DNA from: Octopus vulgaris
Lineage: Eukaryota
Direction: 5' to 3'
Assembly: GCA_951406725.2 (NCBI GenBank)
Contig: OX597819.1
Span: 115,568,001 to 115,632,000, forward strand
Length of the DNA: 64,000 nt
Part shown: in pieces, positions 1,590-62,742 of the stretch
How the letters are laid out: each line of letters starts with the position of its first letter
How positions within the stretch are numbered: position 1 is the first letter of the stretch
Notes under the pieces: model-generated
The model's input: only the letters and a program-made list of their open reading frames with translations
Told to the model about the DNA's origin: nothing
The model's database searches: none
Translations under genes and position numbers: made by a program

Positions 1590-3440
1590 AGACTGTTGGA
1601 AAAATTCCTAACATCGGGTTACAACAAGTAATCTTAGATGCCAAGAACTCTCCGAAGTATTCTAACTGTCCCTAATAACACTTTTTTCTGGAGTTGCACA
1701 AGACTATGTTTTATGCCTATTTTCCATGTCCATCTGTTCAAATACTTAGTGATAGTTACTAATAGTTCCCATAGTCTCTGTAATTAAATGGCTAGATCGT
1801 AGTACTTTGCTATTTTTTCTATACCTCTCATATTGACTTTCTCATCATTTGGAACTGTAAAGTTATATGGTACTTTTTATTCTTTTTGTCTACTAAATCA
1901 AGACTTCTAGTTTCTATTACTCTGTCCATCTCAATGTTAAAGTCCCACAACATCTTTCTTACTTTTTACTAATTTACTAGGTTCATGTTCATACCATCTA
2001 TCATTATCGTAAAATCCTAGATTCCTACATAATTCCCAGTGGATTATGCTCTCTAGGTTGTCATGACTATTCTTGTATTCTTTCTGTACCACCATGCTAT
2101 ATTCACTTACTATATGAGTAGCACTATCTTTTTTTGATTTACATAACCGACATTAGGAATCTACCTGGTTTTTGTTTATTTAGGCTTTTATCCAATTAGT
2201 CCTTAATGCTTGATCTTGTGCAGCTACTAACAAACTTTCTGCCTCCCTTTTCTGCTTCTCTTTCTGCAAACATAATCATGTCTCACTACTACTATTTGCT
2301 GTAATTATCTTTGGGAATCTACCACGAAAAGTCTTCTCTTGCCTGACAGATAATGTTTCTTCTGGGTTTTAACTTTATTTGGCTTTTTGGTTTCCTTATA
2401 TCTTGTGACACTAGCAGCTCTTAAGCTTTCTTCACTATTACCTACATAGGAGTCTATATCTACTCTAGCTGACTGGAGCGTATATTAGCCGACGCGTTGT
2501 GTTAACAACAAACAAGATGAGGACAAATATCCATCGAATGTAAATAATGTAAACAGTATTTCTGCAAGCATAATCATATCTCTCTGCTACTATTTGCTGC
2601 AATTATCTTTGGGAATCTACCATGTTAAGTCTTCTCTTGCCAGTCTGATATCCTTCTTCCTTTCTTGGGTTTTAATTTCATTTGGCTTTTTGGTTTCCTT
2701 ATGTCTTGTGACTCTAGCAGCTCTTAAATTTCTTTCACTATTACCTACATCTACTCTAGCTAACACCACACAGTCTTACACTGATATTAACCCTATTCTA
2801 TCTTACCTTTCCAGGTAAGTATAATCTTACTACTCCTGTTCTTGAGAGAGGTCCTCTATTTGTACTGAATTTCTTCTTACTTCTGTGTAGACTTGCTCAT
2901 TCAGATTTTGTCCAATCTACAAATTCGGACCATTTAGCTTTGACTTCATTAGCTTTCTCACCCTTCTGATGTACTTCTCAGTTTTCGTTTTCCTTTCTAT
3001 AGTTAGTGCTCTGTTAGATATCTAATACTCCTAGATACTTACAACTCTCCCCTTTTAATGATTTTAATGTCTGGCCATCTGGTAATTGGACGCCTTCACT
3101 GTTGACTACCCGACCCTTTTTCATGACTAATATTTCACACTTATTAGGCGGGGGTGAGCTGGCAGAAACGTTAGCACGCCGGGCGAAAATGCTTAGCGGT
3201 ACTTCGTCTGTCGTTATGTTGTGAGTTCAAATTCCACCGAGGTCGACTTTGCCTTTCATCCTTTCGGGGTCGATTAAACAAGTACCAGTTGCGCACTGGG
3301 GTCGATGTAATCGACTTGATCCCCTTGTTTGTCCCCTCTATGTTTAGCTCCCTTGAGGGTAATAAAGAAATAAATATTTCACACTTATCTATACCAAATT
3401 CCATCTCTATATCTTTACTAAAGAGTCTTACCGTTTGTAT
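1590..3440 (-). mobile_element. Degenerate R4/Dong-like RLE non-LTR retrotransposon fragment
   Basis: Minus-strand remnants MEFGIDKC, YKYLG, AAQDQAL, LWDF and LGILDY-type tail, with stops and frameshifts; interrupted by a SINE. Confidence 0.7.
3147..3372 (+). mobile_element. tRNA-derived SINE family A (GGCGAGCTGGCAGAA..GAGTTCAAATTCC..GCCTTTCATCCTTTCGGGGTCGATAAA)
   Basis: A/B-box-like head. Further copies near 3560, 17998-18330, 19567, 29958, 43010-43430, 45870, 50296, 50838, 54835-55455, 58585-59025 and 59222. Confidence 0.85.
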
Positions 3441-7730: not shown

Positions 7731-10064
<2,334 letters not shown>

Positions 10065-10107
10065 TCACCTTGTTTTATTTTTTATTACTGATAGAAAAAT
10101 GATACAC

Positions 10108-20199: not shown

Positions 20200-20470
20200 A
20201 AGTTGTGGCGGGTTGAAGTATTAAGCTGAATGCTGTTGAAGCATTTTCATTTTGTCAAGATTTCAGAATTAGTATTTAAGTGTGTATTAAAGATTCTTAT
20301 AATCCAGAAAATGTGGACCTTCTCAGCTGGGCAGATGTCACAGCATTTGGTTCCTTCTATATTTGGCTACAAAATTTCTAGTATGTTGTACTTGATGTTA
20401 AACTCGTTGCTACAGTCTTTTAAGCTCGGAATGTGATTAATCACTTGATAATTTGGTGGTGTTTCTCTTC
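20200..20470 (-). mobile_element. Probable Penelope-like C-terminal fragment of a second family, inverted against the RT copy
   Basis: Minus strand reads EIL*PNIEGTKCCDICPAEKVHI...LNTNSEILTK, resembling the Penelope C-terminal C.LC..EK..I..LN.RSE motif. Confidence 0.5.
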
Positions 20471-20475
20471 TCACG

Positions 20476-21800
20476 TTCAGATTGAATATGGTATTGAGGC
20501 AATTGATTTCTGGAAAAAGAAACACCCAGAAGCATTTCCTAACCGCATTAGCAAGACCTTCATTACAGAATCACTCAAGTTCATTCTGACAAACAATTAC
20601 TTCCTCTTCGAAAACACACAATACCGTCAAAAATGTGGTATCGCGATGGCTACCAAAGCTACACCAGTCCCTGCGAACCTCATAATAGGCTTCTTCGATC
20701 TATCACTTTATGAGATATCACGCCAGAAACTTGGACACCTTTTCCACATCTACTTAATGGAAAACTGGAAAAGATACTTAGATGATTGTTTCTTCATATG
20801 GAAAGAATCTTATGAAAAACGTCTAAAATTCAAAACCAAACTTAACAACATACAACTCAACATTCAATTCGCTATGGAATTCAATAAACATCATCTCCCT
20901 TTTCTTGATCTCCTAATTATAAAAACACCTAATAACCAAATCACAACCGACATCTACCACAAACCTACAGACTCACAACAACACCTCCTCTTCAGTTCAT
21001 GCCATCCAAAACACACCAAAAAAATTATCCCCTTCAACCTAGCTAAAAGGGTTTGCGCCATTGTCTCGGATCCAACAACTCGAGAAATACGCCTTCAAGA
21101 CCTAAAAAAAAACACACTATTACAACGCCAATATCTCTCCACACTCATAGACTATGGAATAAAACGTGCCAAGGGACTCGACAATAATACACTGAAAACC
21201 ACTCAACGCAGTAACACATCCAACCTCAAAATATTTCCATACATTTCCACCCACAACCCCCAAAACATCGAAGCATACACCACAATCATACAAAACCTTC
21301 CCTTACTGCTCACAGACACCCAAAATGAATAATATTATCAATACACATAAAATCCTTAAATGCAAAAGGCAACATAAATCATTGAAAAAACTCTTAAAAA
21401 ATGCCAGACTTCACACACCACATACACCCCCATCAGTTAAAAGATGTGCATGTCCTAACTGTGATACCTGCCCCTTCCTACTTGAAGGCTCTGAATTTAC
21501 TTTCAAACAAGGAACAAAGTTTAAAATCAAGACCAACTTCTCTTGTTCCTCCGAGAACCTCATTTACGTTTTTACATGCGCCGGTTGCCAACACAATTAT
21601 ATCGAACAAACGAGCCTTCCTTTACGCAGAAGAGTAGCAGTCCATAAAGAACAGATAAATTTCCCACAATACCGTCAAATTCCACTCAGTAGCCACATAG
21701 ACTCTTGCGCTAGAAATAAAAAATCCAAAATTTCATATATTCTCTTTCTATCAATGTAAAGACAGAATCTCTATACAAGAAAGAATTAACAAGGAGAATC
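20476..21800 (+). mobile_element. Penelope-like element, RT plus GIY-YIG endonuclease (frameshifted)
   Basis: QKCGIAMAT, RYLDDCFFIW, LPFLDL, TDIYHKPTD, SCHPKH; then C..C..C and NLIYVFTCAGCQHNYIEQT (GIY-YIG-like). Confidence 0.9.
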
Positions 21801-27934: not shown

Positions 27935-28868
27935 AGCAAGGGGACAAACACAGAGAGGACAAACACGGACAAACAAAGGGATTTAAGTCGATTACATCGA
28001 TCTCAGTGCGTAACTGGTACTTAATTTATCGACCCCGAAAGGATGAAAAGTAAAGTCGACCTTGGTGGAATTTGAACTCAGAACACAACAGTAAACGAAA
28101 TACCTATTTCTTTACAGAGAGGACAAACATGGACAGAGAAACGGATTAGGTCGATTATATCGACCCCAGTGCGTAACTGGTACTTAATTTATCGACCCGG
28201 AAAGGATGAAAGGCAAGGTCGACCTCGGCCGAATTTGAACTCAGAATGTAGCGGCAGACGAAATACCTATTTCTTTACTACCCACAAGGGGCTAAATACA
28301 GAGAGGACAAACAAGGACAGACAACCGGATTAAGTCGATTATGTCGACCCCAGTGCGTAACTGGTACTTAATTTATCGACCCGGAAAGGATGAAAGGCAA
28401 GGTCGACCTCGGCCGAATTTGAACTCAGAATGTAGCGGCAGACGAAATACCTATTTCTTTACTATCCACAAGGGGCTAAACACAGAGAGGACAAACAAGG
28501 ACAGACAACCGGATTAAGTCGATTATGTCGACCCCAGTGCGTAACTGGTACTTAATTTATCGACCCGGAAAGGATGAAAGGCAAGGTCGACCTCGGCCGA
28601 ATTTGAACTCAGAATGTAGCGGCAGACGAAATACCTATTTCTTTACTACCCACAAGGGGCTAAACACAGAGAGGACAAACAAGGACAGACAACCGGATTA
28701 AGTCGATTATGTCGACCCCAGTGCGTAACTGGTACTTAATTTATCGACCCCGAAAGGATGAAAGGCAAAGTCGACCTCGGCGGATTTTGAACTCAGAACA
28801 TAACGGCAGACGAAATACCGCTAAGCATTTCGCCCGGCGTGCTAACATTTCTGCCAGCTCGCCGCCTT
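27935..28868 (-). repeat. Tandem multimer of SINE family A, about 5 units, 184-bp period
   Basis: GAAATACCTATTTCTTTA recurs at 28097, 28260, 28444 and 28628; only the rightmost unit has the 5' head. Confidence 0.9.
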
Positions 28869-28932
28869 CTTACCACACAGCCACACCCATGAAAGTTTAT
28901 GTGTCATTCCTACAGGCATTGGTGCAACATCC

Positions 28933-28967
<35 letters not shown>

Positions 28968-33915: not shown

Positions 33916-34238
33916 ATTCGAGACAAAACCACTATTTTAAAACCAAACAAGGAAAGACTTAATCAATACATAAAATTTTAATATAAATTAAATAAACCGC
34001 CACTACAAATGTTTCATGTCTGCTACCGACAATCTTCAGGTGGATTTTCGATCTTCTAATCAGTATCAAATTTTGACTTCAAAATTTGATACTGATTAGA
34101 AGATCGAAAATCCACCTGAAGATTGTCGGTAGCAGACATGAAACATTTGTAGTGGCGGTTTATTTAATTTATATTAAAATTTTATGTATTGATTAAGTCT
34201 TTCCTTGTTTGGTTTTAAAATAGTGGTTTTGTCTCGAA

Positions 34239-39509: not shown

Positions 39510-39657
39510 TTACATTATTTACATTATTTACATTCGACGGATATTTGTCCTCATCTTTGTTGTTAACACAACGTTTCGGTTGATATACCCTCCAGCCTTC
39601 TTCAGGTGTCTTGGGGAAATTTCGAACCTGGGTTCTCATTCCTAAGGTATTTTTCGA

Positions 39658-39705
<48 letters not shown>

Positions 39706-39985
39706 CATTATTATTGTTGTTGTTCAGCGCGGGCTACAAACCCCAAGATTCTGAGTTCGATTCCAAGCAGTGACTTGAACAATAACAACAACAACCACAG
39801 CAACAACAACATCGAAAAATACCTTAGGAATGAGAACCCAGGTTCGAAATTTCTCCAAGATACCTGAAGAAGGTTGGAGGGTATATCAGCCAAAACGTTG
39901 TGTTAACAACAAACAAGATGAGGACAAATATCCGTCGAATGTAAATAATGTACATAATTCCTCATCTCTTAAATATAGAACTGTA
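39510..39985. mobile_element. Foldback tRNA-head/(AAT)n/hammerhead element, copy 2 (centre partly deleted), inserted in a SINE
   Basis: Inverted tails at 39510-39660 (-) and 39805-39985 (+); partial head 39727-39777. Confidence 0.78.
39565..39610 (-). ncRNA. Minimal type I hammerhead ribozyme motif
   Basis: GACAC-CTGAAGA-A-GGCTG..CAACC-GAAA-CGTT-GTGTT; core intact, one stem II mismatch. Confidence 0.62.
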
Positions 39986-40237: not shown

Positions 40238-40822
40238 TTTTCTACTCTAGGCACAAGGCCAAATTTTTTGGGAGGGGGCCAGTCGATTAGATCGACCCCA
40301 GTACGCAACTGGTACTTAATTTATCGACCCCGAGAGGATGGAAGGCAAAGTCGACCTCGGCGGAATTTGAACTCAGAACGTAGCGGCAGATGGAATATCT
40401 ATTTCTATTTCTTTACTACCCACAAGGGGCTAAACACAAAGAGGACAAACAAGCACAGACAAACGGATTAAGTCGATTATGTCGACCCCAGTGCGTAACT
40501 GGTACTTATTTAATCGACCCCGAAAGGATGAAAGGCAAAATGGACCTCGGCGGAATTTGAACTCAGAATGTAGCGGCAGACGAAATACCTGTTTCTTTAT
40601 TACCCACAAGGGATTAAACATAGAGGGGACAAACAAGGACAGATAAACGGATTAAGTCGATTATATCGACCCCTGTGCGTAACTGGTACTTAATTTATCG
40701 ACCCCGAAAGGATGAAAGGCAAAGTCGACTTCGGCGGAATTTGAACTCAGAACGTATCGACGGGCGAAATACGGCTACGCATTTCGCCCGGCGTGCTAAC
40801 GGTTCTGCCAGCTCGCCGCCTT
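40238..40822 (-). repeat. Tandem trimer of SINE family A
   Basis: Three core units behind a single head at about 40760-40822. Confidence 0.85.
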
Positions 40823-41086
40823 ACCTACATACATTGATACCTATATACATGCATATGAAGTACTCAAATACATACATACATACATACATACATACACACA
40901 CACATACATACATACATACATACATACATACACACATACATACATACATACATACATACATACATACATACATACATGCATACATACATATATATATACA
41001 GACACACGTACGTAGATGGATTCGTACGTGCATATATGCACACATACTTAAGTGGAAACATAAATTATTACATTCTTATACACACA

Positions 41087-44714: not shown

Positions 44715-45116
44715 ATACATACGTACGTACATGTGTGTATCCTTGTGTGTGTGTATGAACGGATGGATGCATGTATATGTATATGTGTGCATATGTGCGT
44801 TGTTAGCTCAACACGAAAAATTGGAACGACCCCGCCTCCCCAAGCATAACAGAGTTAAGAATAGAAACAAGATATAGAACGATGTGAAAATGTGAACGTC
44901 AAAGGCGGATTAAAAGTGTTGGGTGACTAAGCTCAATAGAATAATCAATAAAAACTGTGAACAAGAACAGATGGTTCAAAAATATATATCAACTCATTTC
45001 TGAATGAAAACAAGGAAGGATTCATAATGGCAGCTCAGAAGATAGAGTTCTATATTTAGGAATTATGTACATTATTTACATTTGACGGATATTTGTCCTC
45101 ATCTTGTTTGTTGTTA

Positions 45117-45160
45117 ATACAACGTTTCGACTGATATACCCCCCAGCCTTCATCAGGTAT
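45117..45160 (-). ncRNA. Minimal type I hammerhead ribozyme motif
   Basis: ATAC-CTGATGA-A-GGCTG..CAGTC-GAAA-CGTT-GTAT; stem I carries a paired change relative to the other copies. Confidence 0.7.
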
Positions 45161-45213
45161 ATGAGGGAAATTTCGAACTTGGGTTCTCATTCCTAAGGTA
45201 TTTTTCGATGTTG

Positions 45214-45291
<78 letters not shown>

Positions 45292-45421
45292 TCACTGCTT
45301 GGAATCAAACTCGGAACCTTGGGGTTAGTAGCTCTTAACCACTACGCCATATGCCCGTAGCATAATGGTTAAGAGCGCGGGCTACTAACCCCTAGATTCT
45401 GAGTTCGATTCCAGGCAGTGA

Positions 45422-45475
<54 letters not shown>

Positions 45476-45593
45476 GTAATAGTAATAATAATAATAATAA
45501 CAACATCGAAAAATACCTTACAAAACTCAGAATAAACAATCACAGCACATACCAGGACACAGAGCTGCGCCGTAATATAAAAAAAAACTACTG

Positions 45594-45662
<69 letters not shown>

Positions 45663-45696
45663 CCGAATGAGGACCCAAGTTCGATATTTCCCTAAT

Positions 45697-45738
45697 ACAC
45701 CTGATGAAGGCTGGGGTATATCAGCCGAAACGTTGTGT
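45697..45738 (+). ncRNA. Minimal type I hammerhead ribozyme motif
   Basis: ACAC-CTGATGA-A-GGCTG(loop)CAGCC-GAAA-CGTT-GTGT: stem I ACAC/GTGT, 5-bp stem II, intact core, loopless self-complementary stem III. Confidence 0.7.
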
Positions 45739-46241
45739 TAACAACAAAAAAAAAAATGAGGACAAATAACCGTCAAATGTAAATAAAGCTCAGAAGATTT
45801 GTGTCAGAACAAGATATTGTTAGTTGGTAACTTATTTGTTTCTGATTTGGGCCCTAGACAATAGCAGTGAGTTGGTGGAAAAGCTAACACACCGGGGAAA
45901 TTGCTTGGCAGCATTTTCTTCTCTTTACGTTCTGCGTTCAAATTCTGCCGAGGTCCGCTTTGTTTGCATTCTTTCGGAGTCGATAAAATAGGTACCAGTT
46001 AAAACTTGCTGGCCTTGCGCTAAAATTAGAAATTTACAGATACAAGATTTGCAGTTTTGAGGAAACGAGGTTAGTCAATACCATCGATCACAGTCCTTGA
46101 ATGGAACATTATTTTATCGATCCTGAAAGCATGAAAGGCAAACTTGAACGAGGTAGGATTCGAATTCAGTCGGGAGAAATATTGCTAACCATTGTGCCCA
46201 ACGCGTTTACCATTCTTCCAACTCATTGCTTTATTAATACA

Positions 46242-57473: not shown

Positions 57474-57516
57474 ATAATAAGTGTAGATCGTATACGAGTG
57501 GGTATATATTTATAAA

Positions 57517-57962
57517 AAAGAAGTTTGAAAACGCCACTATATAAGATAAATTTTAATTTTTTTAGAAATTTTACATGTTTTGGTTCTTCTTGAAGAAACG
57601 AACCTTATCAAAAATATTTTAAAAAGTTAAGTGTAATAAAAGAGTTCATAATTGTTTCTTACTGGTCTCAACAGAATCCATGTGGTGGTGTTTTGTCGGT
57701 AGTAAGCATAATAGCTGTAAGTTTAAAGTTGAGTGTAATAAAAAAGTTCATAATTGTTTCTCAACATTCGGACACATAAGAGAGCTAAAAACAACCACGT
57801 GGATTCTGTTGAGACCAGTAGGAAACAATTATGAACTTTTTTATAACACTTAACTTTTTAAAATACTTTTGATAAGGTTCGTTTCTTCAAGAAGAACCAA
57901 AACATGTAAAATTTCTAAGAAAATTAAAATTTATCTTATATAGTGGCGTTTTCAAACTTCTT

Positions 57963-57964
<2 letters not shown>
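57517..57964. repeat. Imperfect inverted repeat, about 175-bp arms and 90-bp spacer, between (TA)n tracts
   Basis: AAAAGAAGTTTGAAAACGCCACTA...CAACAGAATCCA mirrored by TGGATTCTGTTG...TAGTGGCGTTTTCAAACTTCTTTT. Confidence 0.9.
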
Positions 57965-58036
<72 letters not shown>

Positions 58037-61090: not shown

Positions 61091-61523
61091 GGATCTTTTC
61101 GGTTTGAACGGCAGTTTTTTCTAGCGGTGTCATATGAAATTGTCACCCATAATTATGACCCTAGTATCGATCTATTGCATTTCAATTTGTTTTATGGTTA
61201 GGGTTAGTTAGGGTTAGGGTTAGGGGTTGGGGGGAAGGGTATCTTTTTTTCTTCACAAATGTAAATAAACCCAATCTGTTTCTTAAACGAGGGACATATT
61301 CATACGGCACAGAATGTTGTTTACCTCAATGGACGTCACTGATTGGTTGAAATTGCAGAAATCCAAGAAAAAAACAACAAATATCTTACAAACTATAGAA
61401 TTTTCTCAATAAAGCCAAGAGAAAAAGATGTTTTATAAACACATTCTACCAGTATACGAATTAAAAAATTTTTCAGTTACCTAGAAATTATGTTAAAAAC
61501 TGCCATTCAAACCGAAAAGATCC
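61091..61523 (-). mobile_element. Same MITE family, opposite orientation
   Basis: TIRs present; TSD AAAATATC / AAAACATC. Confidence 0.85.
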
Positions 61524-61634
61524 AAAACATCAACTATATTATGGCTGGGAGATAACAGTTTACTCAAAGTACCTCTACTCAGCTTCCACCACGGCATCAA
61601 GACGGCTCCAGAACCTAGCGCATACTTCCTGCTG

Positions 61635-62170
61635 GCCACGGTTTTATACTCTCAAGCCTCTTCTCTTCTCCTTATCTCCTCAAAGACATACAGCACCTCG
61701 AAAGAGTCCAGAGGCTGGCTACCCGCATGGTTCATGGTCTCAAAAATTTGTCCTACGAAGAAAGGCTGAGGACGCTCGACCTTTGTTCTCTTGAAAAACG
61801 CCGCCGCCGTGGTGATCTCATTCTCGCCCACAACATCATAAGCGGGAAGTGTAACCTCTCGAAAGAGCTGTTCTTCACTCCTGCTCCGGAGCGTCGGCTG
61901 CGGGGTCATTCCGAAAAGCTCTACCTGCGACGATTTCATCTCAATCGAAGGAGAGGAGCTTTCTCCGTCCGGGTTGCGGATCCGTGGAACAAGCTGCCAG
62001 ACGAGATGGTGAAGATGCCGACGACCGCTTTGTTCAAAGCCTCCCTGGACCTCAAGTGGCCTGAACTCTTTACATGAACACCACCCTGTACTTAACTCCA
62101 TGTCCCCCTACATGGCCTTGCTATTTGCTTTTGAGCCAAATTAACTAACTAACTAACTAACTAACTAACT
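61635..62170 (+). mobile_element. CR1-type LINE 3' end with (TAAC)n tail
   Basis: LSYEERLRTLDLCSLEKRRRRGDLI..LRGHSEKL..FSVRVADPWNKLP; tandem TAAC tail at 62141-62170. Confidence 0.88.
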
Positions 62171-62297
62171 CTCAGGTGCAGCTTTTCATGTCACTTCTTA
62201 CAGCCTTTACTGTGTGTCCATGCACAGAGTATTTGGGCAGTAGTCATGATGCCGGCATTTTGACACCCGGCGTGAAAACTCGTGATACAGGTAACTC

Positions 62298-62742
62298 GGA
62301 TCTTTTCGGTTTGAACGGCAGTTTTTAACATAATTTCTAGGTAGCTAAAACATTTTAAACTTCGTATACTGGTAGAATGTGTTTATAAAACATCTTTTTC
62401 TCTTGGCTTTATTGAGAAAATTCTATAGTTTGTAAGATATTTGTTGTTTTTTTCTTCAATTTCTGCAATTTCAACCAATCAATGACGTCCATTGAGTTAA
62501 AAAGCATTCTGTGCCGTATGAATATATCACTCGCTTAAGAAACAGATAGGGTTTATTTACATTTGTGAAGAAAAAAAGATACCCTCCCCCCACCAACACT
62601 AATCCTAACCCTAACTAACCCTAATTAACCCTAACCCTAAAATAGATTGAAATGCAATAGATCGATACTAGGGTCATAATTATGGGTGACAATTTCATAT
62701 GACACCGCTAGAAAAAAACTGACGTTCAAACCGAAAAGATAC
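62298..62742 (+). mobile_element. Same MITE family
   Basis: TIRs present; perfect 8-bp TSD GGTAACTC. Confidence 0.88.

Follow-up and report, generated by a model that had tools for sequence, protein, structure and literature searches.

The interrupted palindrome at positions 45044-45786 of the Octopus vulgaris DNA studied here (contig OX597819.1; the whole stretch of 64,000 nucleotides is called the window below) very probably consists of two head-to-head terminal repeats (pLTRs) of one ORF-bearing element of the Penelope/Poseidon type, a pair that is likely rebuilt at each insertion. The palindrome itself is ordinary Penelope biology; the unusual part is the tRNA-type promoter with which the pLTR opens. 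This locus, referred to as copy 3, is a genuine interrupted palindrome that reads tail (-), (ATT)n, head (-), 8-nt loop, head (+), (AAT)n, tail (+), and it is flanked by an identical 12-bp TSD (45032-45043 and 45787-45798). Its right arm is broken by a 73-bp piece from the 3' end of an unrelated LINE together with a second (AAT)n array (45521-45659). The (-) head retains an intact A box (45339-45349) and a CpG-decayed B box, and the (+) head has three mismatches in the A box and an intact B box (45401-45412). The parts of copy 3 are:

45032..45043 (+): left copy of the 12-bp TSD; the same 12-mer recurs at 45787-45798
45044..45212 (-): left-arm pLTR tail, long end with the ~30-nt Penelope 'tail' (sequence of the ORF N-terminus)
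45117..45160 (-): minimal type I hammerhead predicted from sequence, with an intact core, a palindromic loop III and a single G-U in stem II
45213..45288 (-): left-arm (AAT)n spacer
45289..45356 (-): tRNA-derived head with native 5' leader; 6-bp deletion
45350..45357 (no strand): central loop of 8 nt; the junction belongs to a minor type of fold-back
45358..45424 (+): inverted partner head, beginning at the A box
45425..45520 (+): (AAT)n and the first 19 nt of the right tail
45521..45659 (+): secondary insertion foreign to the pLTR, consisting of the 3' end of a likely Dong/R4 LINE (RT/REL) and its (AAT)n; matches the copy 1 LINE at its 3' end
45660..45786 (+): remainder of the right tail, short end
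45697-45738 (+): right-tail hammerhead predicted from sequence, core intact; predicted cut after 45734
45787..45798 (+): right copy of the TSD

A sequence-only reading of the window had ascribed this layout to three loci, with a hammerhead ribozyme in each outer tail, and had missed the TSD of copy 3. The layout stands as described for copy 3 and holds loosely for copies 1 and 2, and the hammerhead core is complete in three of the six tails, both tails of copy 3 included, and not in the others. The repeats lie far outside chance expectation (BLAST E values down to 1e-63; 0 in reversed-pattern controls), and the remaining family pieces in the window are:

2474..2551 (+): tail fragment of this family, standing alone
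7732..7849 (-): copy 1, a 34-nt tail stub (7732-7765) without hammerhead, and (AAT)n
7850..9616 (-): copy 1, a 5'-truncated LINE of 1.77 kb with RT, CCHC and REL (RVT_1, zf-RVT), likely Dong/R4, within (AAT)n
9713..9844 (no strand): copy 1, two heads with the loop at 9780-9787; 6-bp and 4-bp deletions in the (+) head
9845..10065 (+): copy 1, (AAT)n followed by the short-end tail, whose hammerhead core is broken
39514..39985 (no strand): copy 2, inserted in another SINE: tail (-) with the short end, (ATT)n, partial head (+), tail (+) with the long end

The right hammerhead of copy 1 is broken by a change of GAAA to AAAA. Copy 2 has a single partial head (39725-39776, (+)) that lacks the A box, and its centre differs from that of copies 1 and 3. 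The copy 1 LINE is likely a Dong/R4 element, judging by its sequence motifs and its target; TAA is given as the target of LINEs of this type in PMC7998251. A LINE with RT, CCHC and REL lies in or beside (AAT)n in two of the three window copies (7850-9616 (-) and 45521-45659), LINE ORFs occur in the same (AAT)n arrays at further loci (e.g. L236), and the pLTR microsatellite seems to serve as a landing pad for LINEs.

The window also contains repeats of other kinds. A near-perfect 110-bp hairpin at 34022-34133 does not belong to the Penelope pLTR family, and its Rfam miRNA matches fall below the gathering score. A SINE-like unit is found in 184-bp tandem repeats at 27986-28934 and 40281-40888, and two inverted pairs with 94% likeness, of 294 and 191 bp (61230-62591 and 57503-57977), are possibly other fold-back insertions or MITEs. 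RT-like ORF fragments at 20424-21756 have 26% identity to Penelope RT and no Pfam match.

The identity of the arm follows from its surroundings elsewhere in the genome. The family was met at 15 loci in 80 evenly spaced 10-kb stretches (800 kb), which extrapolates to about 50,000 copies in the 2.8-Gb genome. One of these loci, L037, carries an endonuclease fragment ahead of the head, and a search with this fragment returned a set of 30 ORF-end loci. In 28 of the 30 the head lies 3' of the ORF stop, separated from it by a 32-nt spacer, and in 27 of the 30 the tail comes next. At L335, a 5' copy, the head, (AAT)n, hammerhead and tail continue directly into the N-terminus of the ORF in an open frame; L319, L331 and L323 are partial 5' cases in which the tail end continues into the ORF N-terminus. 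Because head, (AAT)n and tail are thus present both behind the ORF (28/30) and ahead of it (L335), they constitute its pLTR. The repeat is about 330 nt long and comprises a short hairpin, the tRNA-derived head, (AAT)n, the ORF start, the minimal hammerhead and a tail of about 30 nt. The ORF, of about 2.4 kb, encodes RT and GIY-YIG and has a pLTR on both sides, one overlapping its start; this whole anatomy was pieced together from several loci, none of them recovered intact from end to end.

The majority columns of the ORF give 801 stop-free codons. Its product matches RVT_1, and a GIY-YIG-type motif at the C terminus can be read in the translations, which also contain what we take to be the YVDD and VY-YKG/CxC motifs; no Cys-rich linker of the Neptune type was seen between RT and EN in the ORF translation. 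The 23 protein homologues, one of them from Anolis, are 595-863 aa long, which is PLE size, and contigs of four other organisms span head, spacer and ORF. By every feature tested the element is a PLE, probably of the Penelope/Poseidon type. The involvement of Penelope machinery, earlier proposed from the window alone, is borne out by the RT/GIY-YIG ORF that adjoins head and tail, and the autonomous Penelope with the same tail that was to be looked for has been found, given that the tail stands behind the ORF in 27/30 loci. The proposal that the element is non-autonomous has to be abandoned, as the arm belongs, as its pLTR, to the autonomous coding element itself. The tests made place the element outside three other classes. 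A tRNA-derived SINE would be a lineage separate from its autonomous partner in all but the 3' tail, and here the unit is a pLTR with the same haplotypes; non-LTR retrozymes are head-to-tail, hammerhead-bounded tandem units, and here head-to-head pairs dominate; a MITE or foldback DNA transposon, with its symmetric terminal inverted repeats and a TSD of fixed length, is at odds with the asymmetric ends, the TSD of 10-16 bp and the link to RT.

The ends of the palindromes carry an insertion signature. Eighty of the 88 divergent tail pairs combine one long and one short end, with the long end on either side, and a TSD of at least 9 bp (10-16 bp) was found in 56 of these 80 pairs vs 12 of 400 shifted controls. 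The extension of about 30 nt at the long end is ORF sequence, as in Adineta Penelope (described in the accessible part of PMC3846280). Long ends on the non-native arm were considered as proof that both arms are transcribed, and this was rejected, since ORF-bearing copies too have the long end on either side. One to three copies of a 9-nt unit lie near the short end of the tail (e.g. 10043-10065); they keep the ORF frame and are a mark of that end, and they resemble slippage or realignment by a telomerase-related RT.

The two arms of a pair are related in sequence. They are concordant at three linked subfamily sites in 26/29, 51/60 and 46/54 pairs, and the discordant remainder (3/29, 9/60 and 8/54) suggests either that two templates are used at times or that mutations recur. 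Shared non-CpG variants amount to 0.74 per 100 columns within twins vs 0.22 between twins (0/20000 permutations; 25 of the 49 twins were usable for this comparison), and this concordance could partly be the work of gene conversion. The ratio of the two haplotypes is alike in ORF-bearing arms (15 Tc to 3 AG) and in arms that begin at the head start (44 to 11), and since solo and ORF-bearing arms have the same haplotypes in the same ratio, a separate SINE lineage is unneeded.

Several individual loci deserve mention. L029 (C1:16.75 Mb) is a twin with two short ends in which the palindrome reaches about 80 bp into the flank, so that an inverted duplication of the target flank stands in place of the TSD; this suggests that fold-back synthesis overran the primer. 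At L129 both arms enter the ORF (for 230 and more than 440 nt) and have private variants in common, which makes it a clean large fold-back. At L269 (C27:12.456 Mb) the deleted head start is found in tandem 38-bp repeats, and the near-identical locus pairs L161/L162 and L234/L237 are segmental or assembly duplicates.

It had been suggested that the inverted dimer moves as a fixed unit, for which a genome-wide count of its central junction was the proposed check. The count shows junctions that vary. With at most one mismatch, the pattern of the window junction matches 106 times, that of a fold-back with a 2-nt loop 1530 times (some CpG-decayed sites being entered twice) and that of the native join of UTR/spacer and head 1293 times (some copies cut just upstream being included), so that the window type makes up about 3-4% of the three classes counted. 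Exact matches in the two largest contigs number 3, 55 and 60, respectively, and the exact 28-nt window junction holds 14 of the 1016 exact head starts. Among 16 centres with both A boxes that were collected without regard to the junction (from a sample including 29 loci found with the tail as query), nine are of the 2-nt-loop type, six of an 11-nt type, one is different and none is of the window type; in many further copies the head is joined to arbitrary points in the tail or the (AAT)n. Nor does any arm-specific variant survive control. The 6-bp deletion, described as specific to one arm, has 36 matches genome-wide in many junction contexts, at least 13 of the 30 inspected being native ORF-linked heads, and it is likely recurrent, being flanked by two GC dinucleotides. 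No column separates native from inverted arms in 49 twins, and an apparent long-end-specific variant turned out to be an alignment artefact (1/236 ends).

What speaks for the inverted dimer being a non-autonomous unit copied as one piece of RNA or DNA is that one fixed junction recurs at 106 places, that copies 1 and 3 have junction and deletion in common, and that a G>C variant of the head, flagged in a pooled arm test for which 2 of the 20 main 2-nt-loop loci were usable, is confined to the inverted arm (5/41 vs 0/38 native arms, and inverted only in all five twins carrying it). This variant is also present in 3/48 native heads and, among loci found by pattern only, in 2/30 besides copy 1, and its enrichment tracks the query, because the query that found three of the five carriers had G>C itself, which makes it partly a query bias. 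With the small share of the window junction, a long end on either arm (19 inverted, 9 native), the deletion in native ORF-linked heads and a T5 run in the antisense arm that would stop Pol III, this explanation is very improbable. The identity of junction and 6-bp deletion in copies 1 and 3, on which it had leaned, is itself correct: these copies lie 35 kb apart, have different ends, and have in common the junction, the rare deletion and two further variants (9780-10065; 45044-45356). Local copying or conversion between them is possible, and without it their likeness is unexplained by a model in which the pair is rebuilt each time.

It is also conceivable, if unlikely, that the main 2-nt-loop palindrome gave rise to the 8-nt-loop junction by losing sequence between short repeats after insertion: the latter corresponds to the former less 8 nt between CCA repeats, and a deletion at the centre is near-universal in main junctions (19/20). 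Such an origin would produce mirror deletions equally often; all six 11-nt-type centres keep the sense side, and mirror forms number 0 vs 6. The frequency of intact centres bears on which type catches the eye. Both heads are intact in 21/30 centres with the 8-nt loop vs 1/20 with the 2-nt loop, so the 2-nt-loop palindrome decays, the 8-nt-loop one persists and the rare type is the more noticeable. That the palindrome is an assembly artefact from chimeric palindromic reads has a negligible probability, as the arms differ by about 8%, the ends are asymmetric, TSDs are present, secondary insertions affect one arm only and joints of opposite strands also occur in RNA reads of another organism; no support for such an artefact was found.

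We regard it as probable that one Penelope/Poseidon insertion accounts for each palindrome, with the pLTR pair rebuilt every time from an RNA likely begun at a tRNA-type Pol III promoter. On the model of Anolis Poseidon (available part of PMC11167929), the protein would cut and extend both DNA strands, and reverse transcription would begin at two sites bracketing the tail. Copying begun in the 5' pLTR would end at the RNA start beside the tRNA head (-7 to +5) and so give rise to solo repeats, and the cDNA end would then fold back, or pair with a second cDNA, through 3-5 self-complementary bases. Three such ends (-7, -6 and -4) are each complementary to the head over 3-5 bases; this would explain why three centres recur, and in all three the sense side is intact. 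The 8-nt-loop junction of the window would be a minor product of an RNA end near -4. Fold-back of a single cDNA and pairing of two cDNAs predict one and the same junction.

Cleavage by the hammerhead does not set the ends of the element; insertions end 70-100 nt beyond the cut site. The putative ribozyme, assigned by motif, has an intact core in 87 of the 259 ungapped family copies; no covariation was detected within the family in these 259 copies, the hammerhead does not appear in the MFE fold, and an Rfam scan of the whole window did not find it. Its stem II differs in related PLEs yet pairs, and the wiring predicted for 45117..45160 matches that of 18 hammerheads behind related PLE ORFs.

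The A/B-box head described earlier as tRNA-like is indeed tRNA-derived. Aligned with tRNA-Arg/Ala of its own genome, it is identical at 47-50 of 74 sites (z about 7) and has canonical A-B spacing, the comparison set being 27 sequences of only six amino-acid types, so that the parent tRNA is not fixed; a profile built from those tRNAs matches 10/10 own pLTRs and 0/37 regions behind related ORFs from other organisms. ARAGORN at default settings and Rfam (window and one head) make no tRNA call for the head, and relaxed ARAGORN returns noise. In 30 loci chosen by an exact head start (two of them one duplicated segment), 17 heads stop at -7 to -3, whereas the other 13 continue to breakpoints scattered across about 850 nt. 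The pLTR boundary lies within 7 nt of tRNA +1, the expected Pol III start. Starts at -13 to -19, for the most part alignments continued into the fold-back, were not treated as UTR.

The sense strand is depleted of TTTT (T4) runs. None occurs in 2701 majority columns of 30 copies vs 2.5-4.7 expected under three nulls (P 0.08, 0.027 and 0.005), and single decayed copies contain 24 in 49,757 nt (0.48/kb), no site being found in more than two copies. Other retroelement ORFs of the genome have 34 in 19,998 nt (19 ORFs), and related PLEs of matched T content have 227 in 91,158 nt (2.5/kb; 59 of 80 loci). The sense strand of the pLTR is T4-free in 4/4 window arms, and T4 is present in 13/15 related pLTR regions. 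G4 runs are likewise absent from the majority columns, and 5 of the 45 long relatives have at most one T4. L378 and L388, PLE ORFs of other organisms with T-rich pLTRs and no tRNA head, are T4-free over 1.9 and 1.4 kb, and show that a T4-free ORF can arise without a tRNA promoter. Raw RNA-seq reads of poly(A) type from a related organism (84% likeness) are abundant, with equal first-mate directions and no pile-up at the start.

From these sequence features we consider it rather likely that Pol III starts the element RNA at the tRNA-type promoter of the pLTR. Pol III RNA is uncapped. A bolder and doubtful extension is that Pol III may transcribe the whole 2.7-kb coding RNA, the ORF having been purged of T4 and being translated without a normal cap; that the same promoter would in this way yield tens of thousands of palindromic solo repeats is an equally tentative proposal. 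The 5' ends could pile up in the same way if the pLTR held a Pol II promoter or if RT stalled at the small 5' hairpin, and the accessible portion of PMC8557442 places a Pol II promoter in the pLTR of Drosophila Penelope.

Two other accounts of the head each have some chance of being right, although neither is likely. The solo repeats might come mainly from SINE-like Pol III transcripts of 3' pLTRs or older solos, mobilised in trans, with the coding RNA made by Pol II. Arms beginning at the head start outnumber ORF-bearing arms (86 vs 29, in a mixed sample), the pLTR is T4-free where relatives have T4, and Kojima argues (PMC10886601) that coding partners must use Pol II. No solo-specific subfamily exists, however, the haplotype ratio and the identity of about 90% being as in ORF-bearing copies, and the ORF too lacks T4; this account is compatible with most of the rebuilt-pair explanation. 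The head might also be the dead relic of a SINE in the 3' UTR of an element transcribed by Pol II, the pile-up being an RT stop at the hairpin. The lack of tRNA calls, the absence of G4 runs, the relatives with at most one T4 and the palindromes known at pLTR 5' ends without a tRNA (PMC3846280, as far as available) agree with this, whereas the coincidence of the pLTR boundary with tRNA +1, the canonical spacing of the boxes and the deficit of T4 under the three nulls do not. The preferred reading remains a pLTR pair rebuilt at each insertion from RNA that probably starts at the head.

With about 50,000 copies, this one family provides a rare statistical record of the PLE insertion step, and the record shows a long and a short end, arms from the same source and junctions probably fixed by the RNA 5' end. 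The junction census, the arm concordance, the pile-up of 5' ends and the terminator depletion are new to this analysis. If Pol III did drive the coding RNA, autonomous retrotransposons would no longer all depend on Pol II (or on co-transcription by Pol I), as the rule has it, a SINE-like promoter and a ribozyme would be seen to meet in one terminal repeat, and a possible route to Pol III/hammerhead repeats of the Schistosoma type would be indicated. Copies of the tRNA-headed pLTR have probably been annotated wrongly, as SINEs. A search of the literature, mainly outside subscription journals and repeat databases, turned up neither a pLTR with a tRNA head nor a PLE driven by Pol III; PMC13282606, a recent annotation of octopus repeats, counts 190 Penelope-like families, and the part of it that was consulted gives no detail of a tRNA head.

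The comparisons that follow refer to those parts of the cited reports that were accessible. The octopus element resembles described Penelope/Poseidon PLEs (Anolis PAc, PMC11167929; Adineta, PMC3846280; PMC8557442) in its ORF with RT and C-terminal GIY-YIG, in the pLTR that extends over the ORF start and contains a hammerhead, in the head-to-head inverted 5' copy with a junction palindrome, in the tail of about 30 nt at one end and in the TSD of about 10 bp at AT-rich targets. Inverted 5' copies and a one-sided tail of 30-40 bp are standard for PLEs (PMC8557442), junction palindromes of Adineta Penelope have been interpreted as self-priming (PMC3846280), and Anolis Poseidon protein, when purified, cuts both strands and extends them, with two starts bracketing the tail and no need for hammerhead cleavage (PMC11167929). 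In contrast to these elements, whose pLTR promoters are described as TATA/Inr or internal Pol II types, the octopus pLTR opens with a tRNA-derived A/B-box head followed by (AAT)n, and its sense strand is T4-free. The predicted ribozyme itself is no different from the minimal metazoan PLE hammerheads (PMC4209133), with which it shares a short helix I, an unpaired base before stem II, a G-C closing pair and palindromic positions 15.2-16.2; pairs of such hammerheads on opposite strands, 100-700 bp apart, have been noted for metazoan PLEs in the same report.

Outside the PLEs, Helenus, Cassandra and Ajax TRIMs (PMC10886601) also carry a small-RNA-gene promoter within the terminal repeat, but they are LTR elements that have PBS/PPT and lack autonomy. 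Animal non-LTR retrozymes (bioRxiv 10.64898/2026.07.22.740005) are likewise PLE-derived hammerhead repeats, non-coding and organised in tandem direct arrays, whereas the octopus repeats are inverted pairs with no independent lineage shown. The nearest precedent for the combination of a Pol III-type promoter and a hammerhead is provided by Schistosoma SM-alpha and Sj-alpha (PMC6765202, PMC8490949), which are non-coding, head-to-tail tandem repeats with ribozyme-set ends and no known ORF; the octopus unit, on the other hand, is the pLTR of a coding element, and its ends ignore the cut site.
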